A stretch of DNA of 64,000 nt from Leptonemataceae bacterium (GTDB lineage Bacteria > Spirochaetota > Leptospiria > Leptospirales > Leptonemataceae): the NCBI GenBank assembly GCA_965227295.1, contig OZ245742.1:5056001-5120000 (forward strand). Reading direction: 5' to 3'. A program made the translations under genes and the position numbers. The notes under the pieces are model-generated. The model did not search any database. It was not told the origin of the DNA and was given only the letters and a program-made list of their open reading frames with translations. Shown piece after piece: positions 6,657 through 64,000 of this stretch (position 1 is its first letter; every line of letters begins with the position of its first letter).

Positions 6657-7184
6657 TTATGCGGATCGGACTTCGCCGTTTTCGTACGTGAGAGTCGGCA
6701 CGCGTGAAGCGATGTCGCGCATAAACGCTTCTTTATCGACGGGGGATAGTAAGATGAATCCGATACCGCCGCGATTGTGTTCTACTTTCAGGCGATCGAT
6801 CGACAACGCCGGTGACGACAGGAGATTGCGGCTCGGTTTGATTGCAGTAACGGCGGATAGTTCCAGCCGCGTGCGGATGAGGCCGAAGCGGATGATGATG
6901 TGCGTGTCGGTTATCGTGTAACGCACCGGCCACACGAGCACGACGATCAACAGGACCGTGAACGCGCCGCTGGCGAGGAGTGTCGCGGCGGCGCCGGTGT
7001 TGGTGCTCCACTGCGCGGCTCCGGCGATCATGCCGGCCACGCCGCCGAGGACGAGGAGCAGGATCAACGCGCCGATCCAGTGGTCGACGCGGGAGGGGTA
7101 GTCTTTCGCGGGCATGGGGTGATGGTAAGATGGGCGGTTTGGGTTGGCAAGTGGGATGTTTAGTAATCTCTCTTCATTGGGCAA
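6657..7184 (-). CDS. Bacterial PH-domain membrane protein (bPH_5-like); start may be 7115
   Basis: YPSRVD.W, two TM segments, RYTITDTHIIIRFG, SSPALSIDRL, LSPVDKEAF. Confidence 0.8.
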   Translation of the reverse strand: MPNEERLLNIPLANPNRPSYHHPMPAKDYPSRVDHWIGALILLLVLGGVAGMIAGAAQWSTNTGAAATLLASGAFTVLLIVVLVWPVRYTITDTHIIIRFGLIRTRLELSAVTAIKPSRNLLSSPALSIDRLKVEHNRGGIGFILLSPVDKEAFMRDIASRVPTLTYENGEVRSA

Positions 7185-7719
7185 GATAAAAACTAAAAGA
7201 AACTTCAGCTCCGTCTAATTTCTTAAACCAGGGAAGTAAATTTTTCATGTCACTGAGAAAGTAGGCAATAAACTGAAATTCTTCCTGCTGTACGATATCG
7301 CTTATGCTATCAGGACTAGAAGAATCGAACACAGTCGGCCCCGTGCCCGTCCCGAGAACGTAATGACCTACGCGCTCCGAGTCTATAATCAGTTCAATTC
7401 CGCTTACTCCACTTTGCTGAACATTCCATATCGCCACTAAGAATTCGGCGTAAGTTACATTACCTTCAGTCTGAATGGTCAAAGTATCCACTTGGGATTC
7501 TATGAGCACGTCTCGAAGATTTTGGTCCCAAAAGTTGCCTTCCCACTTTTTTACATCCCTGAAACTCGGGTGCTTCTCGACTTTGACCTTTTCTCCATTT
7601 AGCTTCAGGCCATCCCGACTCACACTTAACACCGCACGCCCTTCAACGTCCGGCTGACAAGACTGGGAGAAAACCAGAAGTGTCGCCAACATGATTAAAG
7701 AGACATATCTCAAGCTCAT
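7174..7719 (-). CDS. Lipoprotein with an ExbD/TolR-like segment; putative immunity protein for the upstream peptidase toxin
   Basis: Lipobox SQSC; LTIQTEGNVTYAEFLVAIWNVQQSGVSGI; 4-nt ATGA overlap with the toxin stop; AT-rich like the toxin tip. Confidence 0.6.
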   Translation of the reverse strand: MSLRYVSLIMLATLLVFSQSCQPDVEGRAVLSVSRDGLKLNGEKVKVEKHPSFRDVKKWEGNFWDQNLRDVLIESQVDTLTIQTEGNVTYAEFLVAIWNVQQSGVSGIELIIDSERVGHYVLGTGTGPTVFDSSSPDSISDIVQQEEFQFIAYFLSDMKNLLPWFKKLDGAEVSFSFYLAQ

Positions 7720-10700
7720 TGCATCCGCCTACTATGGAATTCAGTAATGGAATTACACTCTACTCCGTAAAGCTTATTACACCTCCTTAGATCGATACGC
7801 GGGGGATAGAAGAATTCAGAACGAATACTATTCGTTCTACGAATAGCCGCATCTTCAAATGGGCCAACTTCGCTCTGAGATGTAGGTACATTGCCAGTAT
7901 TAATTTGAAGAGCATGTACTAATTCATGGGCAACTACGCCAGCTAAGTTTGCATCTACTAGTGAGTCTCCTGGCCCTACATATCTGATATCGCCATCTCG
8001 TAGCGAAGGGTTGATACCAATTTGAGCAGTCATGATTCCGGGATAACCAACATAAGTACGAGACCTGGTCCAAGGGTGCTTTGCTTCACTGGGTATTAAA
8101 CTGAAACCACCGGTCTCATGCACTTGCATTACTAGCTTTCTACCCGACGGCACTGACATCAACTTTCCAATCTCTCCCATTATGCGATCTTTGAATCCCT
8201 TTCCGTCATCAGTAATATACTTGCTCACAGAAGCATACGAGTTGGCAATTTTACCAAAATCGTCTCTCGAAATTATCTCCGAAAATGGAAATTTCCGCGA
8301 GAGGACCTCAGGTTTTAACTCCTCCTGAAGCAACTCCATGGCTTCCTTAGAGAAAACCTGGTAGTTTCCAAACGGCTCACGTCGTATTTCCGCACTGTTC
8401 CAGGTTGTGCGCAGGCGCTGCATCCGGGATTGTGAAATTATTTGAGCTTCATCTTTAATTGCATCGAAATTCGTGTAATAATCCTCTCGATCGACTTCCG
8501 CGAATACATCATCAGGCAGGACCAAGAACTTCCCGAACGATTCAACCGCATAGGGACCGTATTTTTCCTTAAGTTCTTGTGCCCGTTTGTCTCCATTTAA
8601 GCCCGCATCTCGGGTCTTTACTTCTGGATCCCCTCCAGCTTCGCCATCTTCACCACCAGTCTCACCACCACCACCAGTCTCACCACCACCGGCAGTCTCT
8701 TCACCGCCGCTCGTCGCATCGCCATCGCCGGTCTCTCCACCGCTCGTCTCACCGCCGGGCACTTCTTCCCCGCCGGCCACATCGTCATCATCACTGCCGA
8801 TCAAATCACTGATATCTTCCCCGGCCTGCTCCGCGGCGTTGCCGAGCACGCTCGCCACGTTACCCGCCTGGCCGAGCGGAGAATCTTCGCCGAGCGGAGG
8901 GTCCTCGCCCCACTTCGTCGGATCCATCGCCCAGTCTTTCAGATCGTTCAATTGATCGCCGACGGCGTTGAGGTACGGCGACGAGAACCCGTCCGCCTCG
9001 TTGTAATCGACCAGGTCGTATCCACCGCCGCTGACCGCGCCGGTAAAACCGTTCTGCGAATCATAACCGACGCCGAGATCCAGGCCGGCGTAACTTCCCG
9101 TAAACGAACCATCCACCTGATCGCCGTCGACACTGACGTCGAAGCCGTTACCGGTGACATCGCCGTGAAACGTTCCGCCGGTGAAGTCCACCGTGCCGTC
9201 GACGCCGAAACCCGAGCCGCCCAGGTTCGAGGCGTCCACGCCGAACTGCGACGCTAACTCATTCGCATCTCCGGTTAAGCTCAGGCCGCCCGGACCGTAA
9301 CCCGCGTCCAGACCGTAGCCGGAAGCGCTGCCGGTAAAACCGGTCTCCGAATTGTAGGCAAGATCCGCGTCAATGCCCGCAAACGAACCGCTGAACGCGG
9401 CGTCGCCGGTAAAGCCGCCGCCCATAAAATCATACGTACCGTTCACGCCGAGGCCGGAGCCGCCCAGGTTCGAAGCGTCCAGGCCGAACTGTGAAGCGAC
9501 CTGGCCGACATCGGCCGAGAGCGACAGCCCGCCGGGACCATAACCCGCGTCCAGGCCGTAGCCGGACGCATCCATCGAAAAGCCCGTGTTCGAATTCCAA
9601 CCGGCATCGAGGTCAAAGCCGCCGTACGAAATCGTATTCAGGCCCAGGTCGAGGCCGCCCTCCTGACTGTAGCTTAAGTCTCCGTGTTCAGAACTTAAGC
9701 CGGCGCTCAGTCCCTCGCTGGAGGAGTAGCCGATCTTCCCGCCGAAGTCGTCACCCAGGAACGAGGTATCCACGCCGAACTGATCGGCCACGGAAGCGAC
9801 GTCGGCGCTCACGCCCCAGTCGCCGTTGTTGTAGTTCGCTTCGACGCCGTAGGCCGAGGCGTCGGCGGTGAGCCCGCCGTTCTGCGAGTAGTTCACGTTG
9901 AGGTTCGCATCTTCGCCGCCCAACGACAGACTGCCGCCGAAGCCGTTCTCCTGATCGTAACTTAAATCCACCCAATCGTTGGAAAAGCCCGCCGAGAAAC
10001 CGTCGCTCGCGTTGTAATCTAAATCCAGGCCCCAATCGTCTCCGCCCAGATTTGCCCCGGCGGACAGGCCGCCGTCCTCCGAATAATTGATGCCGAAGTT
10101 ACCTATGTCGCCGCCGTACCCTAACGACGCACCGAAACCGTCCTCGCTATGATAACTCACCCCCGCCGAGAATCCGCCGTACTCCAGGCCCGCGGACACA
10201 CCTGTCCCGCCGTGCTCCGAATGGCTGACGGTAACTCGCGCCGGTCCGTAGCCGACACCAACGGAACCGCCAAAGCCGTCCTCCGGCGAATACGAGAGCC
10301 CCACACTCACGGCACCGCCGGTCATCGTTTGCACGTAACCGTTCGCGATACCGCCGACCGCGCCGACGAGGGCGCCCTGTAGACCGCCGCCACTGTTGTA
10401 CGCCTGGTAGGCTCCGTTGATCGCGCCGGCAACCATCAGCGAAGCACCGCCGGTAAACGGCGCGGCGATCACACCCACCGCCGTAATCACCCCGCTCACC
10501 GCGGCCTGGGTCTTCGCTTTCTTCGCGGCTTCTTTCGCTTTCTGGTGCTGCACGAACATCGACGTGAAGCCGGCCGGCAGACCCAGGGCCTGGTCGAGGG
10601 CGGACATCATCTGTCCTTCGGCGTAACTTTGAATGGCCTCGTGAGGTTTCGAGCCGCCCAGGATGGCGCTGATGATCGAAGGCGGAATACCCCAGGCTTC

Positions 10701-13412
10701 GCCGAGGATGGCGCCGGCCTGAGAACGCATTTCACTGGCCAGGGCCTCGCCGAAACTCGCGCCCTGCAACATGGCCTTCGCCAGGGTCTGGATGAGCTTC
10801 GCCTGTTCGACCTGATTCGAAACGTTTTGCTGATACGCCTTTTCGGTGGCGCGGGCGATCTTGTTCGCGTCAGTGATCTGCTCCTGGACGGACTTCATCT
10901 TGTCGCCCAGGTTCTCGTTGAATTGATTGAACGCGTCGCTGAATTGCGAACCGACGCCGCCGTAGTCCCAGGCGTCGAAGACGTCGCCGCCCGAGGCGAG
11001 ACGCACGGCATCCGGCGGCAGGATCGTTACGGTTTGATCCATCATCTCGCGGTCGTAAGCGTCGCGACTGGTGGCGTCGCCGCCGTTGTAACTTGCAACC
11101 CCGGAAGCGATCTTGCGCTTCATGGTTACGGTGCCGTCTTCGGCAACGACGACTTCGAAGCCCTCGTCCGTATGCTTCTTGCGCTCCTCGACCATCTTCT
11201 TTTGCAGTTCGGTTTGCAGACGATCAAACTCGGCCTGATCGAAGGCCGTGTAAAACTTGAGTTCGCCCTCCACCTCGCCGTCGCGCAGTTGCGCCAGTTC
11301 AGCCAGGCGATCTTCTTCTTCGAAGTGCGCGCGATTCGTCATGAACGAGATCTCCCCGTCCTGGCTGCGCGCATGATCGGCGATGCGTTCGATGGCCTGG
11401 TCCCGCGCGTCGTTGGCGCGTTCGTGCATGGCTTGAGCATAGCTCAGGTTCTTCACGCCCGTCGTGGCTTTGCCGAAGCTCTTGAGCAGATTCTCGAGCG
11501 TGGCCGAATCGACGCCGCCGCCCTCGCGGTTGAAGTCCGTGGAGATGCCGCCCAGGCGCCGCTTCGCGTCTTCCATCTGCGCGCTGACCGCGCTGTTCGA
11601 AAGACCGGAGTTGATTAAGTGATCTTGAATGCGATTTAGTGCGCGATCCGTGCGCGCGTCGAGTTGCCGCTCCAGATTGCGAATGCGATTGTCCACGGCG
11701 GCGGCGTTGCCGTCGTTTTTGGCCTGATCCTCGGCGCGGATGAGGCCGGCCCATTGCTGCCGGCCCTGGCGAAACAGGCGATCCATTTGGGATGCGTAGG
11801 CATTGCGGCGGGTGAGGATCTCGTCCCGGCTGGCCTCGTAAGCAGCGGTGGCGGAAGCACGGATGCCCACGGCCTCGTTTTGAAAGTTCGCGTAGTTTTG
11901 TTCGTATTCGGCGACCTGATCTTCCCAGGCTTCGATGGCCGGCAGGAGATTGTTGCGCCAGTCGAGGGCGATGGGGCTCAGCGCGTCGACGTAAGATTGG
12001 TGCGTGAGTTCGTTTTGATGCGCGTCCTCGTCCCACCAGTAGGCCTGGCCGTGGATCTGCATCCGTTCTTCGGCGTAACCGCCGGCTCCGAAGGGTGCGT
12101 TGAAGTTCCACAGGCAAATGGGCAGTCCGTAGGCCCCGCCGCATCCGGCTGCATCGAACGTAAACGCGCCGTTGCCCGCCGAACTGAAACATTCATTGGT
12201 GCGCGCTTCCCCGATTTGTAGAATGCCGTAGACATTGTGACTGGAACTGTAGCCGCAAACGTTCACGCCGCCGGTGATGCTCGTCACGGTCTTGCCGAAC
12301 TTCGCCGAAAGCTGGCCGATGAGCGGCGCCTGGTTGCTTCCGCCCGATTCCATGTACAGGGCGATGGCGTTGATCATGGCGTTGGAACGCCAGTCGTAAC
12401 CGTGACCGCCGCCCCATACGGTCTCCCCGCCCAGATTCACGTAACCGTCTTTGATGCTGTTGTAGTAATCGACGGTTTGTTCTTCGACGAGCTGCTTCGA
12501 TTCCAGCTCCGTCGTCATCGTTAATGTAAGATCGGAGAGCGGTACGTTGTTGTCGAGATCGCTCTTGAGCTGATTGATGAACGCCTCGAAGTCCAGGCCG
12601 GCCTGGTTGTACACGCCCGGGGAAGAATAGAACATGCCGCTGTTGCTGAGCAGGTTTTCCATGCTCTGCACGGCGGTACCGATGGCGTCGCGCACGGTTT
12701 TTTCGTAGGCCTCGATCTGGGCGAGAGACTGCGCGAACTCGGCCTCTTTCGCGTTCAGTTCAGCGAGGGTTTCTTTGTACTCGTTCTCCAGGTTCTGCAT
12801 GGCCTCGCCCAGGTCGGCGATGCCGGCGTTGGCCTGCTCCTGCATCTTGCGTTCCCAATCGGCGTAGGCCTCGCGCGCGTCGCCGGAGCCGCTGCCGGCG
12901 GGTACGTCGTTCGCGGCCGCGGCGGCCTGGCTGTCCCGTCGAGTGTCGGTGGCCGTAAGGTACACCGAGCGTTCATTAGCAACCGCGGCCAGGGCGGCGG
13001 ATTCCCAATCGGCCCGGGCCTTCGCTTTCTGGATCTCCAGTTCTTTGCGCAGATAGTCCTGGTACTCGGCGACGCTGTTGAAGGCGTCGGAACTGCTGAC
13101 GCTCAGGACCTCGTTCTGGATCGTGGTGTCGACCTGGGCCTCCCAGCTGGCGGAGAGCGTGTAGAGACCGGACGCCACGACCGACTGCCATTCGGCGGTG
13201 GTGGGCGCATTGCGGGCCTGCTCGAAATAAGGATCGAGGGCGTTGTCGTTGAACGTGGGTGTCGTGATGTTCGGAACCGGCACCTGCTGGGCGCTCAGTG
13301 GCCCCACGGGAATCGCCGTGCTTACCGTGAAGGTTACGGTGGCGATCCAGGTAACGATTGTTCGGCGACGGCGCGCCCAAATGCCGTTGCGCGAGGCGAA
13401 TGCTGCTTCCAT
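7716..13412 (-). CDS. Giant secreted polymorphic toxin 1 (TIGR04388-like, subfamily A) with C-terminal HExxH (M91-like) metallopeptidase
   Basis: RRRR plus hydrophobic signal peptide; DAFNSVAEYQDYLRKEL motif; coiled coils; AAPFTGGASL helices; Gly-rich beta repeats; acidic linker; VAHELVHALQ...EDAAIRRTNSIRSE. Confidence 0.8.
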   Translation of the reverse strand: MEAAFASRNGIWARRRRTIVTWIATVTFTVSTAIPVGPLSAQQVPVPNITTPTFNDNALDPYFEQARNAPTTAEWQSVVASGLYTLSASWEAQVDTTIQNEVLSVSSSDAFNSVAEYQDYLRKELEIQKAKARADWESAALAAVANERSVYLTATDTRRDSQAAAAANDVPAGSGSGDAREAYADWERKMQEQANAGIADLGEAMQNLENEYKETLAELNAKEAEFAQSLAQIEAYEKTVRDAIGTAVQSMENLLSNSGMFYSSPGVYNQAGLDFEAFINQLKSDLDNNVPLSDLTLTMTTELESKQLVEEQTVDYYNSIKDGYVNLGGETVWGGGHGYDWRSNAMINAIALYMESGGSNQAPLIGQLSAKFGKTVTSITGGVNVCGYSSSHNVYGILQIGEARTNECFSSAGNGAFTFDAAGCGGAYGLPICLWNFNAPFGAGGYAEERMQIHGQAYWWDEDAHQNELTHQSYVDALSPIALDWRNNLLPAIEAWEDQVAEYEQNYANFQNEAVGIRASATAAYEASRDEILTRRNAYASQMDRLFRQGRQQWAGLIRAEDQAKNDGNAAAVDNRIRNLERQLDARTDRALNRIQDHLINSGLSNSAVSAQMEDAKRRLGGISTDFNREGGGVDSATLENLLKSFGKATTGVKNLSYAQAMHERANDARDQAIERIADHARSQDGEISFMTNRAHFEEEDRLAELAQLRDGEVEGELKFYTAFDQAEFDRLQTELQKKMVEERKKHTDEGFEVVVAEDGTVTMKRKIASGVASYNGGDATSRDAYDREMMDQTVTILPPDAVRLASGGDVFDAWDYGGVGSQFSDAFNQFNENLGDKMKSVQEQITDANKIARATEKAYQQNVSNQVEQAKLIQTLAKAMLQGASFGEALASEMRSQAGAILGEAWGIPPSIISAILGGSKPHEAIQSYAEGQMMSALDQALGLPAGFTSMFVQHQKAKEAAKKAKTQAAVSGVITAVGVIAAPFTGGASLMVAGAINGAYQAYNSGGGLQGALVGAVGGIANGYVQTMTGGAVSVGLSYSPEDGFGGSVGVGYGPARVTVSHSEHGGTGVSAGLEYGGFSAGVSYHSEDGFGASLGYGGDIGNFGINYSEDGGLSAGANLGGDDWGLDLDYNASDGFSAGFSNDWVDLSYDQENGFGGSLSLGGEDANLNVNYSQNGGLTADASAYGVEANYNNGDWGVSADVASVADQFGVDTSFLGDDFGGKIGYSSSEGLSAGLSSEHGDLSYSQEGGLDLGLNTISYGGFDLDAGWNSNTGFSMDASGYGLDAGYGPGGLSLSADVGQVASQFGLDASNLGGSGLGVNGTYDFMGGGFTGDAAFSGSFAGIDADLAYNSETGFTGSASGYGLDAGYGPGGLSLTGDANELASQFGVDASNLGGSGFGVDGTVDFTGGTFHGDVTGNGFDVSVDGDQVDGSFTGSYAGLDLGVGYDSQNGFTGAVSGGGYDLVDYNEADGFSSPYLNAVGDQLNDLKDWAMDPTKWGEDPPLGEDSPLGQAGNVASVLGNAAEQAGEDISDLIGSDDDDVAGGEEVPGGETSGGETGDGDATSGGEETAGGGETGGGGETGGEDGEAGGDPEVKTRDAGLNGDKRAQELKEKYGPYAVESFGKFLVLPDDVFAEVDREDYYTNFDAIKDEAQIISQSRMQRLRTTWNSAEIRREPFGNYQVFSKEAMELLQEELKPEVLSRKFPFSEIISRDDFGKIANSYASVSKYITDDGKGFKDRIMGEIGKLMSVPSGRKLVMQVHETGGFSLIPSEAKHPWTRSRTYVGYPGIMTAQIGINPSLRDGDIRYVGPGDSLVDANLAGVVAHELVHALQINTGNVPTSQSEVGPFEDAAIRRTNSIRSEFFYPPRIDLRRCNKLYGVECNSITEFHSRRMQ
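9160..9640 (-). repeat. Internal tandem duplication (243-nt / 81-aa period) in toxin 1
   Basis: GYGLDAGYGPGGLSL...ASQFG.DASNLGGSG occurs twice (gagccgcccaggttcga at 9214 and 9457) but only once in toxin 2; boundaries approximate. Confidence 0.8.
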
Positions 13413-13699: not shown

Positions 13700-14338
13700 C
13701 TAGAAGACGCGGCGTTCATCCTTTACCTTTGCGCGATCCAGGCGCGCCTCGCTTTCCAGGAAGTTCAGACTGTCCGTCGCCGACCCCAGAATGGCGCGAA
13801 CGGCGGCAACCAGGTTCCCGGACTCTGTCTCAACGACCAGGGCTCCGTAACAGCCCCAGAGGTCGTAGCGGGCCGGATTTAGATCGGAGTTGAGCCTGAG
13901 GATTCTGACACCCTCTATGCACCGGCCGATGTATGCACGCAATGGATCGGCCAGAAACTCCGGATGCTCGCGCGCTGTTACGACGACCGGGCCGCTGATC
14001 ATGGATTCTTTCTGGAGGGTCGCCAGCATGCCTTCATCCAATTCGGATGCATAAACTGTGTCGACGTTCATATCCCCAAGAAATCCGATACGGCGGCCGT
14101 CATCCAATATTAGAAGCCCGATTCCGCCCCCGATCCCGATGAACTCGTCCGGTCGCTTGCCGCGAGCACCGTCCTGAAAGTTACGGAGGACTTCCGGCAG
14201 TTGTGCCGCGGAGGCGCTCCGCATCAATGCGCGACCAAAGTCAACGATCCTGCAACCACGCAAGGTTGTGAGCAATTCGTTCGCGTGATCGAGGCGCGAC
14301 CAGCCTAATTCTTGCCAGCGAGTCGAGAGCCTGGGCAT
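13700..14338 (-). CDS. Putative immunity protein (family shared with 41308 and 62971)
   Basis: Starts 6 nt after the toxin 2 stop; motifs LRGCRIVDFGR, GGGIGLLILDDG, AREHPEF...YIGRCIEGVRIL shared with the two paralogs. Confidence 0.75.
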   Translation of the reverse strand: MPRLSTRWQELGWSRLDHANELLTTLRGCRIVDFGRALMRSASAAQLPEVLRNFQDGARGKRPDEFIGIGGGIGLLILDDGRRIGFLGDMNVDTVYASELDEGMLATLQKESMISGPVVVTAREHPEFLADPLRAYIGRCIEGVRILRLNSDLNPARYDLWGCYGALVVETESGNLVAAVRAILGSATDSLNFLESEARLDRAKVKDERRVF

Positions 14339-21822: not shown

Positions 21823-22108
21823 TCGACTTCCCCTCTGCCGTTCATTCTTTGATGCCGCCGAAGCCGCATCAAAGAATACACCGAGCAAGAAGCAAAGAAA
21901 TAGCAACAACTACAAGGAGTCGACTCATTTTCCGAAAAAGCGCCGGATGGACGCACAGACTAACTTACGAAGAAATAAAGCTACCAAATCCTGAGTAATC
22001 CAATACCACAAATTGTGTAATTAACTACAGCATTCTGTGTAATCAACCGGAAGATAAAATTGCATCCGTTCCTTTGAACTGCGGAAATTAATTACTATAC
22101 GTCTTTTA

Positions 22109-22747: not shown

Positions 22748-22843
22748 GGCGCTAAGGATACAGCTACGGCGGCGGCGATCAAGCCGAATATCGTTTCAGG
22801 AAAGGCTTGACCACCAGGAAATTCCGGTTTGTGTTTCCAAATT

Positions 22844-23810: not shown

Positions 23811-23829
23811 GGATTCGCTTGCTGGATTC

Positions 23830-26285: not shown

Positions 26286-26290
26286 TGCGG

Positions 26291-27259: not shown

Positions 27260-27283
27260 CTTAACATGTTAACTTAACAGATC

Positions 27284-28285: not shown

Positions 28286-28309
28286 TTCAGTTACCCTTAG
28301 TATCTACGC

Positions 28310-29929: not shown

Positions 29930-30139
29930 TCTACCGAACTCGCCCGCTCAGGGCCGCGTCATCGTGTAAGTCGCTCTCGTTCGGTCCGATTCGTTAGTCT
30001 TTATTATATAGTTGCGAATCTAGATGTTTATCGACGCCGGTTTTTCTAAAATTTATAAAGCATCTTCCGCTTTTTTTTATTGATAAAGGCATGCAGCGTT
30101 GAATTCTTTCATGTGCCCGCTCAAGTTCGCCCTTCTCGC

Positions 30140-31419: not shown

Positions 31420-31453
31420 ATCAGGATGTCCGTCGAGGATCGGCCGACGACCG

Positions 31454-41940: not shown

Positions 41941-41947
41941 ACGCCCG

Positions 41948-56202: not shown

Positions 56203-56205
56203 CGA

Positions 56206-57708
56206 TTATTCCTGCGACGTTTGCTCCGATTGCGTTGCGTTGTTCTCGCTCCTTTCGACCAGGGCTTCCACCTGCATGCCGTCGCGCAGCAGCGAGAATT
56301 TTTCCACGGCGATCACATCACCCTCTTGCAGACCTTCCGTAACTTCCACTTTTTCATCGCGGCGTTCGCCGGTCTTCACTTCCACACGATACACGCGATT
56401 GTCGCGAATGACGAAGGCCGCCGCCGCGCCGCTGTCGCCGGGTTGCAGGGCTTTTTCCGGAACCATCAATGCAATGCGGTCCTCGCCGGTGACGATCTGT
56501 CCGCGCAAGAACATGCCCGGGCGAAATTTGAGGCCGGGGTTGTCGAGCAACGCGCGGACACCGACGGTGTGCGTCTTCGTATCCACGAGCGGATCGATGA
56601 GTTCGACGACGGCCTTAAACCTTTCGTCGGGGAACGTATCCACGGTGAAGCGAAACTCCATGCCGGGTTGTACATCTTTGGCGCGGGATTCTTTGACGTT
56701 CACCTGGGCGTAGACCTGATCGATGTCCACGAGAACCATGATGGCCTCTTGCGGAGTGGCAACGCTGCCCTGGCGTACTTCTTCGCCGGGGGATTTGTTC
56801 CGCGCGGCCACGATGCCGGTGATGGGCGAGCGGATCGTCGCCTCGTTGAGCAAAGTGTACGTGTTCTGCAATTCGGCCGCGGCGGCGCGCACCCGGGCTT
56901 CCTGAACCCGCACCTCGGCCTTCTGTTCGCGGGTGTTCAGATCCAGGTACATGCGATAACGCGCGTCGTCATTTTGCGGAACGCTGAGTCCGGCCTGCCT
57001 TAAGTCTTTCTCACGGAAACCTACGCTCAGGATTTCCAGATCCCGCTTCGCGCCCAGGTAATCGGCCTCGCGGGAAATCAACGTAACCCGCGCGGTCTCG
57101 TACTCTTCGCGGCTGATGCCGCCGGCGTTGTACAAGGCCTCGCGCCCCTTGAACGAAGAGCGTTCTCGTTCGAGCAGGGCCTTGAGCTCCCGGGCCTGGG
57201 TCCGCTGGCGTTCGATCTGATTCCAGCGGCGCTCAATGTCCCGGCGCGCGTTTTCGTAACGTTCTTTGACGAGGGCGAGCTGCGCTTCTTCGCCGTCCAG
57301 GGCCGCCTTCTGTTGCGCGGCCTGAAGTTCCAGCGGCAAACGTTCGATCTGCACGAGCTTCTGGCCGACCCGCACGGTCTCGCCTTTCTGCGCATAGATC
57401 TCGTCGATGCGGCCGGAGGACTTCGACACCACGTCGATCTTTTCGAAGTATTCAATGACACCCGAGGCTTCGATGGCCGGAGTCATCTCCACGCCCTCGA
57501 CTTCCACGGCCTTTACCTTAACAACGACGCCCTCGACGCTTTCTTCTTCGCCGCCGCCACCGCCTATATAATAGAAGGGAGCGAAGGCCGTGCGCGTAAC
57601 CGCGGATTCCGGCGCCAGCCAGCGTGCGAGAAAAAATGCCAGCACGTAGAGGAGGATCACCGCCGCGACAATGAAGAGCGGGCGTTTGTTCAATTTCAAA
57701 AACCACAT
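56206..57708 (-). CDS. RND periplasmic adaptor (membrane fusion protein) with a long alpha-hairpin
   Basis: N-terminal TM; SGRIDEIYAQKGETVRVGQ; IRSPITGIV; DPLVDTKTHT; FRPGMF; GLQEGD. Confidence 0.92.
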   Translation of the reverse strand: MWFLKLNKRPLFIVAAVILLYVLAFFLARWLAPESAVTRTAFAPFYYIGGGGGEEESVEGVVVKVKAVEVEGVEMTPAIEASGVIEYFEKIDVVSKSSGRIDEIYAQKGETVRVGQKLVQIERLPLELQAAQQKAALDGEEAQLALVKERYENARRDIERRWNQIERQRTQARELKALLERERSSFKGREALYNAGGISREEYETARVTLISREADYLGAKRDLEILSVGFREKDLRQAGLSVPQNDDARYRMYLDLNTREQKAEVRVQEARVRAAAAELQNTYTLLNEATIRSPITGIVAARNKSPGEEVRQGSVATPQEAIMVLVDIDQVYAQVNVKESRAKDVQPGMEFRFTVDTFPDERFKAVVELIDPLVDTKTHTVGVRALLDNPGLKFRPGMFLRGQIVTGEDRIALMVPEKALQPGDSGAAAAFVIRDNRVYRVEVKTGERRDEKVEVTEGLQEGDVIAVEKFSLLRDGMQVEALVERSENNATQSEQTSQE

Positions 57709-57882: not shown

Positions 57883-58614
57883 CTACCGAAGCGTTTTTGA
57901 TTCATCGCCGGCATCATCCTGCGCACCATCATCCTGCGCGCCGCCCGTGCCGCGCTGCATGAAATCCGCCTGCTCGCCACGTTCGTCGTTTTCCCAGCGG
58001 CCGGCCCAGATCAAACCGCCGTGGTCGTCCAGCATCACACCGACGCCGTTTCGTTTGCCGTCCTTCCACTGACCAATGTAACGCTTGCCGTCGTCGTAGA
58101 TGTAAATGCCAGCGCCCTCAACGACGATACCGTTTTCGTACGTGCCTTCGAGACGCGTGCCGTCCGTAAGTTCGACGGCACCGTCGCCGTGGGGCTCGCC
58201 CTCGTTCCAGCGACCGGTGTACTTCGTGCCGTCACTCCAGGTATACGAACCGAAGCCGTGCTTTACGTTATGATGAAACTCCCCGGAGTACTTGCCGCCG
58301 CCCGGATACACATAGACGCCGTAGCCGTGTTTTTCGCCCTGCACCCAGGCGCCCTCGTAACGGTCCCCGCGCGGATTGACGAACGTACCGAAACCGTGGC
58401 TCTCTCCGTCCTGAAACTGGCCGGAGTAACGCGTGCCGTTTTCGTAGACCAGAATGCCCGTGCCGTTCTCACAATCGCCCTGAATGCACTCGGACGGCAT
58501 CTCGTAAATGAAACGATAGTACACGAAGAAAGCAGCGAAGAGTACGATCAGCACGGCGGCCAGGCTGCCGAGACCGATGGTAAGATATTTCAACCAGGGG
58601 CGTGAAGCGAACAT
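57883..58614 (-). CDS. Membrane-anchored MORN-repeat protein
   Basis: Likely start MFASRP; one TM; CIQGDCENGTG; MORN repeats. Confidence 0.85.
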   Translation of the reverse strand: MFASRPWLKYLTIGLGSLAAVLIVLFAAFFVYYRFIYEMPSECIQGDCENGTGILVYENGTRYSGQFQDGESHGFGTFVNPRGDRYEGAWVQGEKHGYGVYVYPGGGKYSGEFHHNVKHGFGSYTWSDGTKYTGRWNEGEPHGDGAVELTDGTRLEGTYENGIVVEGAGIYIYDDGKRYIGQWKDGKRNGVGVMLDDHGGLIWAGRWENDERGEQADFMQRGTGGAQDDGAQDDAGDESKTLR

Positions 58615-58717
58615 GAGGACAATGGATTGCACAGGGAAACGTGATGGCAAGCGATGTTCTGCCCGGAACGACGCGGATTCGGTTGACGGGAATAAGCAGC
58701 CGTTGTCTGCTCCGCTC

Positions 58718-59656
58718 ATGGAATGGAAACGCGGTGCTTGTATTCTGATCTCCGGCGGAGTAGCCGTGATTCTGGCTGTGACCGGCCTCTCCGCACAAAC
58801 CGTCGGCGACTACGTCAAAACGAACCGGGACGACATCGTCAACGGAACTCCGATCAAAGAGCCCTACAAGGTCGAAGGCGAGACGGCGGACGAGATCCGG
58901 AAGAGCGAAAAGAAGAACTCGCCCCATCCGGACGGCCACATCGGCAACACCAAATGGAACTTCGTCGACAACGAGATGTTGGGAGCCGGCATCGTCGCCG
59001 AAAAGAAGTGCCATGACGGCAAACATACGGTCATCGTACACTACGAACCGTCCACGGTGGGTCTGCTGATCATCGTGCAGTTGCCGGAATGGACGAAGAT
59101 CAAGGACAGCCCGGCGCGGCTCTGGTGGCCGCGGCACATCCTGGAACTGGAAGTCCACGAAGACGGCCACGTGCAGATCGCGAAAACGGGACACGAGTTC
59201 GCGCACAAAAATCACCTCGTGCTCCGCGGCATGGCGACGGCGGACACGCTGAAAGCCGCGCGACAACAGGCGGTGGAAGAGCTGCGCCGGCAGAAAGATG
59301 AGCTCCTGAACACGTATCTACAACGAACGAAGTCCTACCAGGCCGCGTACGACAAGGCCACCAGACACGGAAAAGCCGCCGCCTTTCAGAACGATCAAAA
59401 GGTAGCGGCGGAACTCGTGGAAAAAATGAAAACCGAGTTCAGTGAAACACTGAAAACCTCCGCTGCCGCCGCGGCGAAGACCCGCAAACGCTTTGCCGGC
59501 CTTCGAGAAGGCAACTGCGAACTGGAACACTCAAAAGAAGACCTCAATCCCGATACCGCCGAAGAAGAAATGCGCGAGAGCAAAGAGCAACCGCGCGAAG
59601 ATGAATCGACACCGTTAGAAGGACAACGAGAGTCGAAATTCAAGCGGGGTCGCTGA
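58718..59656 (+). CDS. Secreted DUF922-like Zn-dependent protease
   Basis: Signal peptide LSA-Q; YKVEG.T..EI, LPEW, VHEDGHVQIA, YDKATRHG. Confidence 0.7.
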   Translation: MEWKRGACILISGGVAVILAVTGLSAQTVGDYVKTNRDDIVNGTPIKEPYKVEGETADEIRKSEKKNSPHPDGHIGNTKWNFVDNEMLGAGIVAEKKCHDGKHTVIVHYEPSTVGLLIIVQLPEWTKIKDSPARLWWPRHILELEVHEDGHVQIAKTGHEFAHKNHLVLRGMATADTLKAARQQAVEELRRQKDELLNTYLQRTKSYQAAYDKATRHGKAAAFQNDQKVAAELVEKMKTEFSETLKTSAAAAAKTRKRFAGLREGNCELEHSKEDLNPDTAEEEMRESKEQPREDESTPLEGQRESKFKRGR

Positions 59657-59669
59657 GGACACCCGCGCC

Positions 59670-60341
59670 TCAATAACCGAAAAAGAACGTGAGATAACAC
59701 ATGCACATGAGGCCGAAGTACGGCAGGATCGCCGTTAAGAAGGCCCGGCCCGCGTTCTGCGCATACCGCGCCCGGTAGCCCTGATACGCCGCGATGTTTT
59801 CCCAGCATAACGCCGAGACACTGAGCACCGCCGCGGCCATCCCGCGCACGATCTGCGCCGTACTGATTTGATCCGCCGGACCGGGGACGAGCGGGTAATA
59901 CAACAACGACACCTGGACCAGGAAACCGGACAACACCAGGGGCAGCACGCTCAACGCCGAGAGCGCGACAACGAGCGGCCAGGCTACGCCCTCTTCTCCA
60001 AACACGCGCAACAACAGATAACGCACGCTACCGAATCCGAAAATCCACAGAAGCCAGTAGAGCGGATACCAGAGATACGCCGTCGGCGCCTGGTTGCGAA
60101 ACGCGAGCGTTACGCCGGGATCCATGTTCGCGCGACGCAACACCGCCTCGCTGAGTTCGCGCAGCATGGCCTGGTTCCACCAGGCGGAGAAAAAGAGAAT
60201 CAACGCGCTGCCCGCGAGCACGACGGTCGTGACGATCACGGCGACACGCAAAACTTCGGCCGGTTCACTTTCGCGCTGAAAAAACCCCGGCAAAAAGACG
60301 GCGCGCAGGATTTGCTGGATCGACACGTCCTGGTTCATCAT
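59670..60341 (-). CDS. Yip1-like multi-pass membrane protein
   Basis: About 5 TM segments; paralog of 30772..31419. Confidence 0.65.
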   Translation of the reverse strand: MMNQDVSIQQILRAVFLPGFFQRESEPAEVLRVAVIVTTVVLAGSALILFFSAWWNQAMLRELSEAVLRRANMDPGVTLAFRNQAPTAYLWYPLYWLLWIFGFGSVRYLLLRVFGEEGVAWPLVVALSALSVLPLVLSGFLVQVSLLYYPLVPGPADQISTAQIVRGMAAAVLSVSALCWENIAAYQGYRARYAQNAGRAFLTAILPYFGLMCMCYLTFFFGY

Positions 60342-60355
60342 GCCGGACCCGATTG

Positions 60356-61048
60356 TTAGTTACGTGAGCCGCGACGCCGGGGCTGCGGGAGGTCCGCATC
60401 GCATGCTTCGAAGAGCGCGCGGTGCGCATACACGGCGACGGAAGTGGCCGGCAGAACGCCGACGACCAGGAGCAACAGGCCGACGATCAACAGCAACGCC
60501 GTGAGCAACAGCACGGCCAGGATCGGCCAGAAACGACCGGCACTCGCGCGCCAGGAATTTTGCATGGCGTCGAAGGGATCCTGCTTCCGCGCAATCACGT
60601 ACCAGGGCGACAACGCCAATCGTACGAGCACGTAAAACGCCGCGGGCAGTGCCAGGACAAAGCAGATTGCTCCGATGATCGTCCGCGGGAACGCGGACAT
60701 CATACCCAGGCCGGGCAGTGCGAACAGGAAGAGGATCACCCCGAACGCGATTTGCAGTACGAGGTACGCGCCCAGACGTCGCCGGCCGCGAAAGCACAGG
60801 CCGGGCCTGCGCTCGTCGCCGTCCGCGAGATGGTAATGCAGGAGGCCGAGCTGCCAGTAGGCGTTGACGACGAACACCAACAGACTCATCAACAGTGCGT
60901 AGAACAGCCCATCCCCAAAATTCGCGATGCCGCGTAAGATGATGTTGCTGATCATTAAGCAGACGAAGTAGATCAACACCGCGACGGCCGACAGGATCGG
61001 CGTGTTGCGGTAGTATGTGTATGCGTTGCGGAAGACTGTGGTGATCAT
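60356..61048 (-). CDS. Integral membrane protein (DUF975/GDPD-anchor-like)
   Basis: Multiple TM segments; RLALSPWYVI...PFDAMQNSWRASAGRFW, GLLLLVVGVL. Confidence 0.7.
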   Translation of the reverse strand: MITTVFRNAYTYYRNTPILSAVAVLIYFVCLMISNIILRGIANFGDGLFYALLMSLLVFVVNAYWQLGLLHYHLADGDERRPGLCFRGRRRLGAYLVLQIAFGVILFLFALPGLGMMSAFPRTIIGAICFVLALPAAFYVLVRLALSPWYVIARKQDPFDAMQNSWRASAGRFWPILAVLLLTALLLIVGLLLLVVGVLPATSVAVYAHRALFEACDADLPQPRRRGSRN

Positions 61049-61890
61049 GGGGCTGTGGGAACGGGAACGTCGGATTCGATGTTCCGTCGTGTTCCGTCAC
61101 TGTCTACCATTATACCGTCGTGGGGTTCGCCGTTCTGAAACGTACCTTCGAAGCGGCGGCCGTCACTGTAGTACAGCGTGCCGGAACCGTGCGGTACCAT
61201 TTCGGAAAATTCGCCGTGATAGTGGTTCGCCGGCACCGACAACGGCGCAGGCGATCGCATGACACCGTAGAGGAGCTCGCCGTCCAGCCACTCGCCGAGA
61301 GCGATCTTACCCGTCGGCCAGATCGCCATCCCGTGTCCGTGCGCTTTGCCGTAGCGAAAGCCGCCGTGGTAATGATAACCATCCGGCCGATCTTCCGTGA
61401 GCAATCCGACATAGCCCGTGCCGTCGAAGGTGTCCCGCTGAAAGTGACCGATGTAAAAACGATCCGCCGCGCGCTGGTACCCCAGGCCGGCGCGCTCGCC
61501 CTGGTTCCACTGCCCCGCATACAACGACGCGCCCGCATCGTAACGCAGGACCCCGAAGCCGTGATACTCATCGCGGCCGAAGTGTCCGGAGTACACGCGG
61601 CCTTCGGCATCGCGCAGGTAACCGTAGCCGTGTTTGTCACCGTCGTCGAACGATCCTTCGTAACGATCGCCGTGCGCGGTAACTTTCGTTCCGAAGCCGT
61701 AGGGCATTCCGTTCTCGAACGTGCCGGCGTAGAGTGATCCGTCCTCGTAGAGATATTCACCGATGCCGTCGATGCAGTTGCCGGTGGTGCACGTTCCGCC
61801 CGGTTGCGGGGTGCAGCCGGCGTTTGTCAGCAGGGCGGTCAGGATGGCGTACGCGGCGGCAAGATGGAGTGATGGGCGGTGGTGGGTCAT
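61045..61890 (-). CDS. MORN-repeat lipoprotein
   Basis: Likely start MTHHRP; lipobox NAGC; CTTGNCIDG; MORN repeats. Confidence 0.85.
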   Translation of the reverse strand: MTHHRPSLHLAAAYAILTALLTNAGCTPQPGGTCTTGNCIDGIGEYLYEDGSLYAGTFENGMPYGFGTKVTAHGDRYEGSFDDGDKHGYGYLRDAEGRVYSGHFGRDEYHGFGVLRYDAGASLYAGQWNQGERAGLGYQRAADRFYIGHFQRDTFDGTGYVGLLTEDRPDGYHYHGGFRYGKAHGHGMAIWPTGKIALGEWLDGELLYGVMRSPAPLSVPANHYHGEFSEMVPHGSGTLYYSDGRRFEGTFQNGEPHDGIMVDSDGTRRNIESDVPVPTAP

Positions 61891-61978
61891 GGACGATGCA
61901 TGATTCCAGGTGGTTCGCCAGCGGATCAATCACGAATCGTGGGGGCTTGCGAATGTTACGGCGAAGGCGGGGCGGAAG

Positions 61979-62974
61979 TCATGGGGAGGCGGAGACGGGA
62001 ACGCCGGATTCGATTTTCATTTGCTCGCCGCCGCTGTCCACGATGATGCCGTCGTGTTGCTCGCCGTTTTGAAACGTACCTTCGAAACGACGACCGTCGG
62101 CGTAGTAGAGGGTACCGGGGCCGGAGAAGACGTCGTCCGCAAAGGAACCCTCGTAGCGCAGGAAGTCCGGGTCGTCGCCGCGGTAGTGCATAACGCCCTG
62201 GCCTTCGAACTTACCGTACACGAACTCGCCGACGTAGCGTCGACCGTCCGCGAATAGATACGTGCCCTTGCCGTGAAACTTGCCTTCTACGATGGGCCCG
62301 ATGTACTTTTCGCCGATCAAACCTTCGAGGCGCTGGTACGAGTGCACGCCGTACACGCGCTCACCTTCTTTGAACTCGCCCATAAACGTATCCCCTTCCG
62401 GCCAGAGTAAGACGCCTTTGCCGTGGAACTTGCCGTTCTTGAATTCGCCGAAGTACTTGTATTGAAACTCTTTACCGGTGCTTTCCACGACACGCTCCGC
62501 GTATCCGTAACCGTTGAGATCGTCGTCGATGTGTTCGGCGATGTACGTGCGGCCGTCGGGTATCGTCAGCACGCCAAGGCCGATGCGATCGTCCTCTTTC
62601 CACTCGCCGGTGTACTGTTGCCCTTTGAACTGCCCGCCGGTGTAGGTGTACGTGCCGTGACCGTCGTAGTGACCGTTGTCGAAGTTGCCGGTGTAGCGGC
62701 CGTTTTCAATTTCGTACGTCCCCTGGCCGTGGCGGCGGTCGTAGAGCCACTGACCTTTGTAGTAGGCGCCGTCTTTATAGCGCATCTCGCCGAAGCCGCT
62801 GCGCTCGCCGTTCAGGAACTGCCCTGTGTAGGTGCCCGTGAGGAGTTTCATCGTGCCGGTGCCGTTCGTGCACTTTCCGGACGTGCAGACGCCGGGGGTG
62901 AGTTCGGGGGCGGGCGTGCAGGTGAGGAGGGTGAGGGTGAGTGCTATGAATGATGGAACAAGGGATTGGCTCAT
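61979..62974 (-). CDS. MORN-repeat lipoprotein
   Basis: Likely start MSQSLV overlapping the upstream stop (ATGA); lipobox LLTC; CTSGKCTNG; MORN repeats. Confidence 0.85.
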   Translation of the reverse strand: MSQSLVPSFIALTLTLLTCTPAPELTPGVCTSGKCTNGTGTMKLLTGTYTGQFLNGERSGFGEMRYKDGAYYKGQWLYDRRHGQGTYEIENGRYTGNFDNGHYDGHGTYTYTGGQFKGQQYTGEWKEDDRIGLGVLTIPDGRTYIAEHIDDDLNGYGYAERVVESTGKEFQYKYFGEFKNGKFHGKGVLLWPEGDTFMGEFKEGERVYGVHSYQRLEGLIGEKYIGPIVEGKFHGKGTYLFADGRRYVGEFVYGKFEGQGVMHYRGDDPDFLRYEGSFADDVFSGPGTLYYADGRRFEGTFQNGEQHDGIIVDSGGEQMKIESGVPVSASP

Positions 62975-63624
62975 AGTTCGATGACTTCTTCGATAATGGA
63001 GGTGTCGAGGCGGGAGGAGTCGATGAGGTAGAAATTCGTCCCCACCGATTCCTGGTCGTTGTTCATGGCGAAGCCGATGACAATCGAGTGCCCGTGCTCG
63101 AATTCTAATTGTACGCCCCCCCAGCGATCCGGGCGGCCAGTGTATTTCTTGATTCGCTGAGTTCGCAGCAATCTTCCATACAGGACTCTCTTCCCGACGC
63201 ACCTCTGGACCACGTCATTCGAAAGATCTGGATGCTCCCGTGTGTCTATGCAAAGATAGTTACCGCGGTCATTACGGAAATCACTTACAAAAGACTGACC
63301 CGCGTCGTGTACAAAGACATCGCCAAATTCACATCCATACGCAAAAGCAAGACCGGAATCATCCGATGCCGTGAGTATAATAATCCCCCCACTTTCGGCA
63401 ATCAGACTACTGACATCAAGACTCTGCCCGTAGAGACTTTGCTTGATGTCACGACTATACTCTATGAGTTCCTCAATAGTCAGATGGCCGCATGCCACAA
63501 AAGGCGCCACACGCACAACGCTTGTCACGACCTTCCCCTTAAATTCACGAATCAAATCAGAGGCACTCGCCGCGTCCCTCCAGTGGGGGCTGGCCAGAGT
63601 GCGATATCTTCGGCTCACGATCAT
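62971..63624 (-). CDS. Putative immunity protein (family shared with 13700 and 41308)
   Basis: ATGA overlap with the upstream kinase-like ORF; FKGKVVTSVVR, LIAESGGIIIL, TREHPDL...CVGKRV. Confidence 0.75.
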   Translation of the reverse strand: MIVSRRYRTLASPHWRDAASASDLIREFKGKVVTSVVRVAPFVACGHLTIEELIEYSRDIKQSLYGQSLDVSSLIAESGGIIILTASDDSGLAFAYGCEFGDVFVHDAGQSFVSDFRNDRGNYLCIDTREHPDLSNDVVQRCVGKRVLYGRLLRTQRIKKYTGRPDRWGGVQLEFEHGHSIVIGFAMNNDQESVGTNFYLIDSSRLDTSIIEEVIEL

Positions 63625-64000
63625 TGGCTATCCTTCAGCGTGATCCCCTGTGCCTCTGCCGCAGCGAGCACCTGCCTGATCATTGAATTTAGCTCTTCTA
63701 AGGACTTCTCCTTTCCCCCAGGTGTTTTAACCAATCCGTCGATATCATCAAGGTAAAAGTCGCCAGTCTTATAGTCAACGATACCTTCAAGATCTTCAAG
63801 ACCACCATGCTTCTCAATGAATAGCTTCAAGTCATCTAGTTGGTTCTTGAGGTTTTGCAGTTGCGTTTCTTTCATCTTGGTTAACAGCGTATGATAAAAC
63901 GTTCCCGCGCTTTCATCGAAGAAGCCCGCATCGCCGATGGCATCGGTGGATACCGCATTGGGAACCTTCTTTTTCAGAAACGCGATACAGTCTCCTGTCG
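63621..64000 (-). CDS. 3' end of a fifth kinase-tipped toxin (5' part outside the window)
   Basis: Frame is open to the window edge: ...CIAFLKKKVP...LKNQLDDLKLFIEKHGGLEDLEGIVDYKTGDFYLDD, aligning with the tips of toxins 2 and 4. Confidence 0.7.
   Translation of the reverse strand, partial: TGDCIAFLKKKVPNAVSTDAIGDAGFFDESAGTFYHTLLTKMKETQLQNLKNQLDDLKLFIEKHGGLEDLEGIVDYKTGDFYLDDIDGLVKTPGGKEKSLEELNSMIRQVLAAAEAQGITLKDSQ

Follow-up and report, generated by a model that had tools for sequence, protein, structure and literature searches.

Inverse autotransporters (type Ve secretion; intimin and invasin) are built of an export signal, an N-terminal periplasmic part with LysM, a 12-stranded barrel and a C-terminal passenger, and the CdiA/CdiB systems (type Vb) consist of giant proteins whose toxic tips are interchangeable, along with immunity genes and orphan cassettes. 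In type I secretion and in MacAB-TolC, polypeptides leave the diderm cell by way of a TolC channel and an adaptor. Here we compare with these systems a 64,000-nucleotide stretch of DNA from a Leptonemataceae bacterium (GenBank assembly GCA_965227295.1, contig OZ245742.1, positions 5,056,001 to 5,120,000), referred to throughout as the window. It represents a polymorphic-toxin island from an uncultured Leptospirales bacterium of high G+C content, in which genes for giant proteins of the TIGR04388 family lie among those of a tripartite pump of the resistance-nodulation-division (RND) type. As judged by sequence comparison, the linkage of toxin and pump genes outlasts large sequence divergence, changes in gene order and transfer to plasmids. 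We favour, with a probability of roughly 0.55, a dedicated partnership in which toxins that anchor themselves would be served by a module acting in their assembly, exposure or release.

The toxins resemble the polymorphic toxin systems with PT-HINT (Zhang et al. 2012, PMC3482391, in the accessible passages) in having a conserved body, a HINT domain ahead of a variable tip, small downstream open reading frames (ORFs) and, in a Leptospira relative, orphan cassettes. They differ in that the TIGR04388 body matches no known trafficking domain, two of the four complete toxins are without HINT, and a pump module accompanies them; the accessible passages of that paper contain neither 'Leptospira' nor 'TolC'. 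Giant proteins with interchangeable tips, candidate immunity genes and orphan cassettes are also shared with CdiA/CdiB, but neither TpsB/CdiB, haemagglutinin-type repeats nor the VENN motif was found among the 32 ORFs scanned in the island. The order of signal, N-terminal part, predicted 12-stranded barrel and C-terminal passenger is that of the inverse autotransporters, and the beta domain gives a fold match to that of intimin; however, there is no sequence-family match, the helical N-terminal part of ~1000 aa is not LysM, and the passenger would consist of HINT plus toxin. TolC and an adaptor are common to the island, type I secretion and MacAB-TolC, although the inner-membrane part in the island is an RND protein and no ABC transporter is present. 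Pumps of the MdtABC-TolC type are similar in having an adaptor gene followed by two paralogous RND genes together with an outer-membrane factor, and differ in that the RND scores of the island proteins fall below 1250 bits, the relay residues are not the same, and the operon adds genes for Ig-like, lipoprotein, tetratricopeptide repeat (TPR) and Yip1 proteins.

A literature search, in which coverage of subscription journals and bioRxiv supplements was limited, returned no description of the toxin-pump linkage and no match to 'TIGR04388', and the sole paper joining 'polymorphic toxin', 'RND' and 'TolC' is unrelated. The L. interrogans proteins LIC10490-10496 have been treated singly, as vaccine, plasminogen-binding or barrel-assembly machinery (BAM) candidate proteins (PMC5406399, and the accessible parts of PMC11358297 and PMC2889836, among others). 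This suggests that the toxin-pump partnership is undescribed so far, although a prior description is possible. How spirochaetes place large proteins on or beyond the outer membrane is poorly understood, and neither the function nor the export route of the longest Leptospira proteins is described in the literature searched. If true, the partnership would extend the known roles of RND machines, provide a testable genetic handle on interbacterial competition in Leptospirales, and explain why plasmids of pathogenic Leptospira spend about one third of their length on the pump and one giant gene. If the pump should prove irrelevant, two results would stay useful, namely the prediction of a barrel inside the toxins and annotations for about ten gene families that are linked.

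TIGR04388 toxins and a predicted internal barrel

The window has a G+C content of ~60% and most of its genes are on the minus strand. The 32 ORFs at 7174-64000 were profiled against Pfam and NCBIfam, and seven upstream ORFs against Pfam (39 in all). A first-pass annotation, made from the sequence alone, had pointed to at least five toxin-like genes, four of them complete, and the search with TIGR04388 (NCBIfam, Lepto_longest) that it proposed bears this out, with all toxins above the curated cutoff of 45 bits. The complete genes, all transcribed leftwards, are those of toxin 1 (7716-13412; 1898 aa, 306.7 bits), toxin 2 (14344-21909; 331.3 bits), toxin 3 (31454-37699; 2081 aa, 316.3 bits) and toxin 4 (41948-49828; 2626 aa, 273.5 bits). 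Toxin 2 probably does not start at the TTG listed for it (21909) but at 21822, which gives 2492 aa; this is Met30 of the listed frame, where P0152 (2492 aa) starts and from which the alignment with toxin 1 runs. The last 125 codons of toxin 5 are at 63621-63998 on the same strand and match residues 2268-2392 of P0136 (2392 aa) at 125/125 identity in a local BLAST against stored proteins. Because this frame is the C-terminus of P0136, itself a TIGR04388 protein (330.2 bits), the incomplete fifth toxin is real. A homolog search for longer relatives of the 125-aa fragment gave no match. P0004 was also considered as the gene at the window end and was ruled out; it is a sixth TIGR04388 paralog, encoded at another place on this 5.94-Mb contig.

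Between toxins 1 and 2 identity is 70% over ~1370 aa, and between toxins 3 and 4 it is 56% over ~1250 aa (BLAST); in both pairs the C-termini are unalignable; each pair thus displays the polymorphic-toxin trait of a common N-terminal body with differing tips. The expectation that N-termini are conserved and C-termini variable therefore holds, and that of a Hint domain holds for half of the complete toxins, with PT-HINT identified by Pfam in toxin 3 (residues 1510-1644, DNA 32768-33172; E 7.6e-17) and toxin 4 (residues 2277-2405; E 2.8e-14) only. A common N-terminal motif, S-D-(A/H)-F-N-(S/T)-V-A-E-Y..Y-L-R..E-L..Q-K, had been recognised at first pass and is present in all four window toxins, with variants in each of the eight relatives that keep the N-terminus. 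The toxin N-termini consist of basic residues, a hydrophobic stretch and (A/S)-Q-P-V-(P/S)-V-P, and may be a cleaved Sec signal, as had been proposed, although RRR(R) occurs in three of the four. In L. interrogans LA_3725 the N-terminal hydrophobic feature was read as a single transmembrane segment (accessible part of PMC4751964).

The tip of toxin 1 (7716-8915) is metallopeptidase-like, with an HExxH motif and a weak match to Peptidase_M91 (E 0.0076), and is followed by a lipoprotein ORF, which together suggest that this tip may act in the periplasm. The other toxin tips and the candidate immunity proteins have no Pfam match at E up to 1, and for the C-terminal ~1000 aa of toxin 2 no Pfam family was found and the best Atlas score was 0.84, a lead at most, with none at 0.9 or above. 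Four Leptospira plasmid relatives (hits H6, H7, H10 and H11) are annotated as members of the M23 or DD-metalloendopeptidase family. A small co-directional ORF follows each of toxins 1, 2, 4 and 5, and none follows toxin 3. These candidate immunity genes, all on the minus strand, encode a 181-aa putative lipoprotein whose frame overlaps the toxin 1 stop by 4 nt (7174-7719; a hydrophobic N-terminus and then Cys), a 212-aa protein without a signal sequence after toxin 2 (13700-14338), which may be a cytoplasmic immunity protein, a 235-aa protein whose gene overlaps the end of toxin 4 (41308-42015), and a 217-aa protein after toxin 5 (62971-63624). The last two are proposed by position, and family searches with all four gave no match (Pfam, and NCBIfam too for those after toxins 1, 2 and 4). 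The downstream ORFs may confer immunity, and the C-terminal tips are presumed to be toxic; the label 'contact toxins' is likewise an inference. Beyond toxin 3, a convergent Yip1 gene ends 35 nt away (31419-31454), and a similar layout of toxin, TPR and convergent Yip1 genes is seen in locus L002 of the genome scan described below.

The architecture of toxin 3 was modelled with AlphaFold2 from a 32-row alignment. The model of residues 33-1047 (predicted local distance difference test score, pLDDT, 76.8; predicted TM-score, pTM, 0.56) contains very long helices interleaved with sheets; Foldseek gave no match at E 1e-3 or better and no fold is assigned, the top matches being PrgA and weak TolC-type channels at TM 0.15 or below. 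For residues 1040-1500 (pLDDT 77.7, pTM 0.60) the model has an unbroken run of 12 strands (pLDDT 90-97) between flanking helices, a predicted barrel-like domain at residues ~1152-1347 (DNA 33659-34246, minus strand). The Foldseek list for this domain consists mostly of membrane barrels (VDAC1, the intimin beta-domain, KdgM, PgaA, BamA-EspP, BrkA and FapF), the best matches being VDAC1 (E 1.4e-3), the intimin beta-domain (probability 1.00, TM 0.41-0.43) and KdgM (TM 0.50). Its dyad hydrophobicity sum is 32.2 compared with a shuffle mean of 14.9, a value reached by none of 2000 shuffles, the final strand terminates in Phe-Asp-Phe, and invariant residues of the domain are present in 12/12 aligned family members. 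The order in toxin 3 is thus a helical N-domain, the predicted 12-stranded barrel-like domain, PT-HINT and a variable tip of 437 aa.

In the light of this model the beta domain may be an outer-membrane barrel that anchors the toxin itself, and type V-like self-anchoring would offer an alternative route to the surface because the toxins carry a predicted domain of this kind. The 12-stranded barrels of inverse autotransporters have both ends on the periplasmic side. With 12 strands, both ends of the toxin barrel would likewise be periplasmic, and either the HINT-toxin part or the N-domain would thread out.

A non-canonical RND pump

The tripartite RND set is complete, with an outer-membrane factor (OEP), an adaptor (TIGR01730) and a permease (ACR_tran), and is encoded on the minus strand in two separate strings. 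The first, an operon-like string at 26291-29929, contains genes for a TolC-family outer-membrane factor (28310-29929; OEP 7.4e-42), an Ig-like (Big_5) lipoprotein (27284-28285; Big_5 8.4e-12) and a LIC10494-type lipoprotein (26291-27259; NF033169 145.5 bits, cutoff 70). The second, at 49988-57708, contains a membrane-fusion protein (MFP), the periplasmic adaptor, which is anchored at its N-terminus and has a long hairpin (56206-57708; TIGR01730 205.7 bits), followed by RND-B (53032-56202; ACR_tran 1.7e-228) and RND-C (49988-53035; ACR_tran 3.5e-141). Toxin 4 begins 159 nt beyond the end of this string, and the interval contains no terminator-like site. The toxin genes had been described at first pass as interleaved with these two strings and with paralogous TPR, MORN and Yip1 genes, and this is the arrangement that we see.

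Both permeases fall short of the 1250-bit cutoff of NCBIfam RND_permease_1 and RND_permease_2 (RND-B 662.1, RND-C 385.3), and the closest solved relative of RND-B is MdtB (9lyq_B). We take the Asp-Asp positions of TM4 and the Lys position of TM10 to be the proton relay, from work on AcrB. At these sites the window RND-B has Asp-Ala in TM4 (Asp-(Ala/Ser/Thr) across the systems compared), where MdtB has Asp-Asp, and Asp rather than Lys in TM10, and RND-C has no charged residue at either. The pattern in the two proteins is kept in 6/6 systems compared. With these residues the pump looks like an RND heteromer of one energised and one passive subunit, unlike the textbook drug pumps. A homolog search with the MFP shows that it belongs to a distinct clade of 17 clusters at E 1e-64 or better and 34-58% identity, below which the scores drop to generic adaptors at 29% identity.

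The departure of the pump from the canonical form, with a relay-less RND protein kept in all six systems, would fit a changed substrate, and the scenario proposed at first pass is that Sec delivers the toxins to the periplasm, where they would be captured by the RND pair and adaptor and driven by protons out through TolC. There is a precedent in E. coli, where a periplasmic peptide toxin leaves through MacAB-TolC. The linkage of toxin and pump in environmental genomes, in L. interrogans and on plasmids (see below) speaks for such threading, as do the 159-nt spacing from toxin 4, free of terminator-like sites, and the lack of other secretion components in the island. Among the 39 ORFs there are no ABC transporter, type VI secretion system (T6SS), TpsB or Rhs domains, and among the 32 window ORFs no PAAR, VgrG, Hcp or YD repeats; the first-pass annotation was correct in seeing no T6SS, CdiB/TpsB, Rhs/YD or ABC component. 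Nonetheless, threading seems to us unlikely. RND pumps are known only for moving small molecules, metals and lipids, not proteins of 200-280 kDa, and the toxins, at 1898-2626 aa, have a predicted barrel-like domain of their own. Unfolding in the periplasm would be without an energy source, RND-C, at 1015 aa, is not enlarged, and four of the 15 toxin-bearing plasmids described below are without the pump.

More broadly, the TolC-adaptor-RND module may constitute a new proton-driven trans-envelope machine, specific to Leptospirales, that exports giant toxins or powers their exposure or release, and that in pathogenic Leptospira is carried on plasmids together with its substrates. This is a tentative proposal, and one that could well fail.

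Conservation of the toxin-pump linkage

A toxin-centred genome scan returned eight loci, six from the metagenome-assembled genome (MAG) bin.39, one from a Leptospira MAG and one from a Leptospirales MAG, and their 74 ORFs were compared with Pfam and, by BLAST, with the window. The first-pass annotation had named the absence of synteny or co-occurrence in other genomes as grounds for abandoning its proposal. As far as the genetic link is concerned the proposal withstands this check, for the pump is found beside a TIGR04388 gene in two of the MAGs, in L. interrogans and on Leptospira plasmids. In locus L004 the adaptor and the two RND genes share the strand of the toxin; next come a short TPR gene, which is oppositely oriented, then the toxin and then a MORN gene. 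In L005 the pump trio is divergent from the toxin, with Yip1-like and MORN genes between them. Identity to the window is 68% (L005) and 51% (L004) for RND-B, 56% and 36% for RND-C, and 54% and 51% for the adaptor, and the MORN genes of both loci are orthologs of the window MORN gene just upstream of the adaptor. The outer flanks and the gene order differ between L004 and L005. The bin.39 genome has at least six toxin loci, and one adaptor of the MFP clade was found, on the L005 contig, which fits with one pump for several toxins.

Leptospira genomes unite the two window strings. A single string there runs from TolC through the Ig-like protein, lipoprotein, TPR, MFP and two RND genes to Yip1, with MORN as a neighbour and a TIGR04388 gene at a distance of 3-11 kb. 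The treatment of the two window operons as parts of one system in the first-pass annotation is well supported by this single string, which includes the TPR and Yip1 genes. In L. interrogans Copenhageni the minus-strand string is LIC10496-LIC10488 (gene table in supplement file 2 of PMC3953431, accessible part). LIC10496 (509 aa) has been called TolC-like (PMC5406399), LIC10495 has 608 aa and LIC10494, the name-giver of the NCBIfam family, is a lipoprotein (PMC3953431, same part). LIC10493 has 213 aa (same table) and is a small TPR lipoprotein with a BamD-like AlphaFold2 model (accessible part of PMC11358297). The following genes are LIC10492 (497 aa, 'heavy metal efflux pump'), LIC10491 (acrB, 1026 aa), LIC10490 (971 aa), LIC10489 and LIC10488 (PMC3953431, same part), and the string thus has one gene of MFP size and two RND genes. 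A divergent plus-strand string ends 11 kb away in LIC10502, of 2787 aa (same table), which is LA_3725 (PMC2387172), a PT-HINT protein (accessible part of PMC4751964).

When 72,556 plasmids were searched by tblastn with the toxin N-domain, 15 records were returned, all of them from Leptospira. The L. weilii plasmid NZ_CP092209.1 carries a string encoding TolC (542 aa), an Ig-like protein (593 aa), a lipoprotein (229 aa), a 198-aa protein, the adaptor (497 aa), two RND proteins (1028 and 1021 aa) and a 227-aa protein, which is 3.2 kb from, and divergent to, a TIGR04388 gene of 2225 aa. Pfam identifies the 198-aa protein as TPR and the 227-aa protein as Yip1 (E 3.4e-5, under the gathering score), and a convergent neighbour, also of 227 aa, as MORN. 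BLAST against the window gives 27% identity for the TPR protein, 35% over 415 aa for the adaptor, 45% for RND-B and 34% for RND-C. The remaining members also match their window counterparts, with 34% identity over 495 aa for TolC (E 2e-113), 47% for the C-terminal 205 aa of the Ig-like protein, 33% over 98 aa for the lipoprotein, and 43% for the MORN protein. Plasmids of L. noguchii and L. interrogans carry the same pump string, and in plasmids of the pGui1 type TolC is preceded, on its own strand, by the toxin gene, whose end is ~9 kb away.

Searched with RND-C, the plasmids yield 11 Leptospira records at 34-36% identity, the match being to the second RND gene of the operon, and then generic RND genes at 26% or less. 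All 11 pump-bearing plasmids also bear a toxin gene. Against a background of at least 62 Leptospira plasmids (ParB search), Fisher's test gives 2.7e-9 with kinship ignored, a value that overstates independence, since these are related plasmids. A set of 13 plasmids with ParB at 99% identity or more to that of pGui1 divides into five with both toxin and pump, seven with neither, one with toxin but no pump, and none with pump but no toxin. No Leptospira-named protein had appeared in the best 120 MFP homologs, and the idea that Leptospira is without the pump was overturned by the plasmid orthologs; since these are at ~35% identity, the gap reflects a limit of sensitivity in that search.

The L. 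weilii locus also contains, downstream of the 2225-aa gene, two N-terminally truncated TIGR04388 genes of 958 and 805 aa (18746-24342 of L009) that keep PT-HINT and tip, each followed by a small ORF of about 92-107 aa. From this layout they look like orphan toxin-immunity cassettes.

Mobile-element genes are present near several of these loci, including an IS3 transposase next to LIC10502, Rpn and IS66 transposases flanking the L. weilii locus, and an integrase near the toxin locus of L001. They raise the alternative that the pump is a small-molecule efflux system with no role for the toxins, travelling as co-cargo of mobile islands and plasmids; the spacing of toxin and pump on plasmids, from 3 kb to tens of kb, and the drug pump subunit MdtB as best solved relative of RND-B are consistent with this. 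However, the linkage is kept over about six divergent versions of the pump (RND-B 41-67% between lineages) in spite of rearranged gene order, no pump-bearing plasmid among the 11 is without a toxin, and the two pump halves, although apart in the window, are both within the toxin island. Moreover, the TPR, MORN and Yip1 families of the Leptospira pump operon or its neighbourhood recur beside individual toxin genes. We regard such hitch-hiking as decidedly improbable.

A role for the pump could also be indirect, if the module exported a lipid, glycolipid or lipoprotein needed for toxin display, or shielded the envelope of the producer from its own or kin toxins. The RND relatives MmpL and HpnN move lipids, and the module holds several lipoproteins. 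LIC10494 is reported to be surface-exposed by live-cell immunofluorescence (accessible part of PMC2889836), which agrees with such a role, as does the BamD-like model of LIC10493 (accessible part of PMC11358297). Against it, candidate immunity genes are already present behind four of the five toxins, and no lipid-synthesis gene was found in the island (39 ORFs scanned), and we see this as a long shot.

A plausible mechanism for the dedicated partnership that we favour can be outlined as follows. A TIGR04388 toxin would consist of an N-terminal export signal, a helical domain of ~1000 aa, an amphipathic beta domain of 12 strands and a variable toxin tip, preceded in toxins 3 and 4 by PT-HINT, which would be self-cleaving. 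It would cross the inner membrane by Sec, anchor in the outer membrane by its own barrel in a type V-like manner, and then present or release the tip. The partner module would comprise TolC, the Ig-like lipoprotein, the LIC10494-type lipoprotein, the short TPR protein, the MFP, an RND protein with the Asp/Asp pattern, a relay-less RND protein, and Yip1-like and MORN proteins, and would spend proton-motive force on assembly, surface exposure or release of the toxin, by physical or functional contact with it. A single pump would serve the several toxins of one genome.

A number of observations weigh against this partnership. The tie between pump and toxin rests on gene linkage. The pump is present in two of the eight toxin loci of the genome scan (two of the five with at least 9 kb of flank), the TolC operon in none of the eight, and in L006, which has full flanks, the accessory families were not found. 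The toxin is without the pump on four of 15 plasmids, and the kinship of the plasmids together with the ~9 kb spacing means that co-presence and co-absence may go back to single events of insertion or deletion. For the chromosomal genes of L. interrogans, orthology is based on annotation and gene sizes, not sequence. As to the toxins, PT-HINT is missing from toxins 1 and 2 (Pfam), the predicted barrel rests on one model from 32 sequences, none of its Foldseek matches reaches E 1e-3, and no Pfam autotransporter or IAT_beta family matches the toxins.

Accessory and neighbouring genes

Paralogy of the TPR, MORN and Yip1 genes within the island is confirmed by BLAST. The TPR proteins (Pfam) are of a long type and a short type, and there are four MORN genes and two Yip1-like genes. 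N-termini like those of lipoproteins are seen, by eye or regular expression, in most of the TPR and MORN proteins, in the Ig-like protein and in the product of the ORF that follows toxin 1.

The short TPR type is represented by a 212-aa putative lipoprotein (22109-22747, minus strand; lipobox LAAC), the counterpart of the TPR protein of the Leptospira pump operon (27% to L. weilii, E 1e-20; 34.5% to L004), and by a second at 30080-30775 (plus strand; lipobox MTGC; 30% to the first). The latter is followed on the same strand by a Yip1-domain protein, probably of the inner membrane (30772-31419; Yip1 1.1e-11; multiple hydrophobic segments; 39% to the Yip1 protein of L002). Two long-type TPR genes are at 22829-23758 (plus strand; 309 aa) and 39472-40353 (minus strand; lipobox LAAC; 54% to the TPR protein of L002), with 33% identity between their products. 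The gene at 39472-40353 adjoins one for a MORN-repeat lipoprotein (40350-41345, minus strand; MORN 6.5e-31), which has BLAST paralogs. Upstream of the adaptor is the membrane-anchored MORN protein of the pump-associated type (57883-58719, minus strand; MORN 2.9e-24), which is 63% identical to its counterpart in L005 and 48.5% to that in L004. Between this gene and that of the second Yip1-like membrane protein (59670-60341, minus strand; 25% to 30772-31419; three hydrophobic segments) is a DUF922 gene (58577-59656, plus strand; E 1e-16), whose listed frame overlaps the listed start of the MORN gene. Further minus-strand genes encode a polytopic membrane protein of 230 aa (60356-61048; from hydropathy, with a weak GPDPase_memb match) and two MORN lipoproteins (61045-61929 and 61979-63202, together 61045-63202; MORN 9.8e-17 and 1.2e-36).

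The Ig-like operon protein varies in size with the number of Big_5 domains, having 333, 593 and 1216 aa with 1, 3 and 8 matched stretches in the window (27284-28285), L011 (5406-7187) and L012 (6288-9938), respectively. Its C-terminal half has a Big_5-like Atlas match at 0.92, to be taken as a lead only.

A non-coding tandem array of ~7 units of 330-430 nt is present at 23827-26290, with units 60-96% alike. It interrupts the string of genes from TolC to TPR at a point that corresponds to the junction of lipoprotein and TPR genes in the Leptospira operons. Some units have a 65-nt insert with a perfect 22-nt palindrome. All seven occurrences of the array motif are inside the array and none is in the 13 fetched loci, and ORFs inside the array look spurious. 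Covariation lends no support to an RNA fold of the array units (1/81 pairs), and an Rfam search of the window gave no match.

A 7TMR-DISM sensor fused to an AraC-type DNA-binding domain (37808-39460, plus strand; Pfam) is a candidate regulator. Sensors with seven transmembrane segments recur near toxin or pump genes, including a 7TMR-DISM-GAF-cyclase protein in L001 (6407-9604) and proteins of Leptospira plasmids annotated 'histidine kinase N-terminal 7TM domain' (L012, 23477-24385; L013, 25630-26535). These have no mutual BLAST match at 1e-4, and may be regulators of the toxin-pump system.

The first-pass annotation placed the start of the island at 7174. A third long-type TPR gene, encoding a putative lipoprotein, lies outside this boundary at 4259-5143 (plus strand; lipobox LTAAC in the translation; 42% identity over 293 aa to the product of 22829-23758), and the island therefore begins further upstream. 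The upstream neighbours of the island, at 1-7184, encode a PAS-GGDEF protein, a TPM-domain protein, a CarboxypepD_reg-like lipoprotein and a bacterial PH-domain membrane protein.

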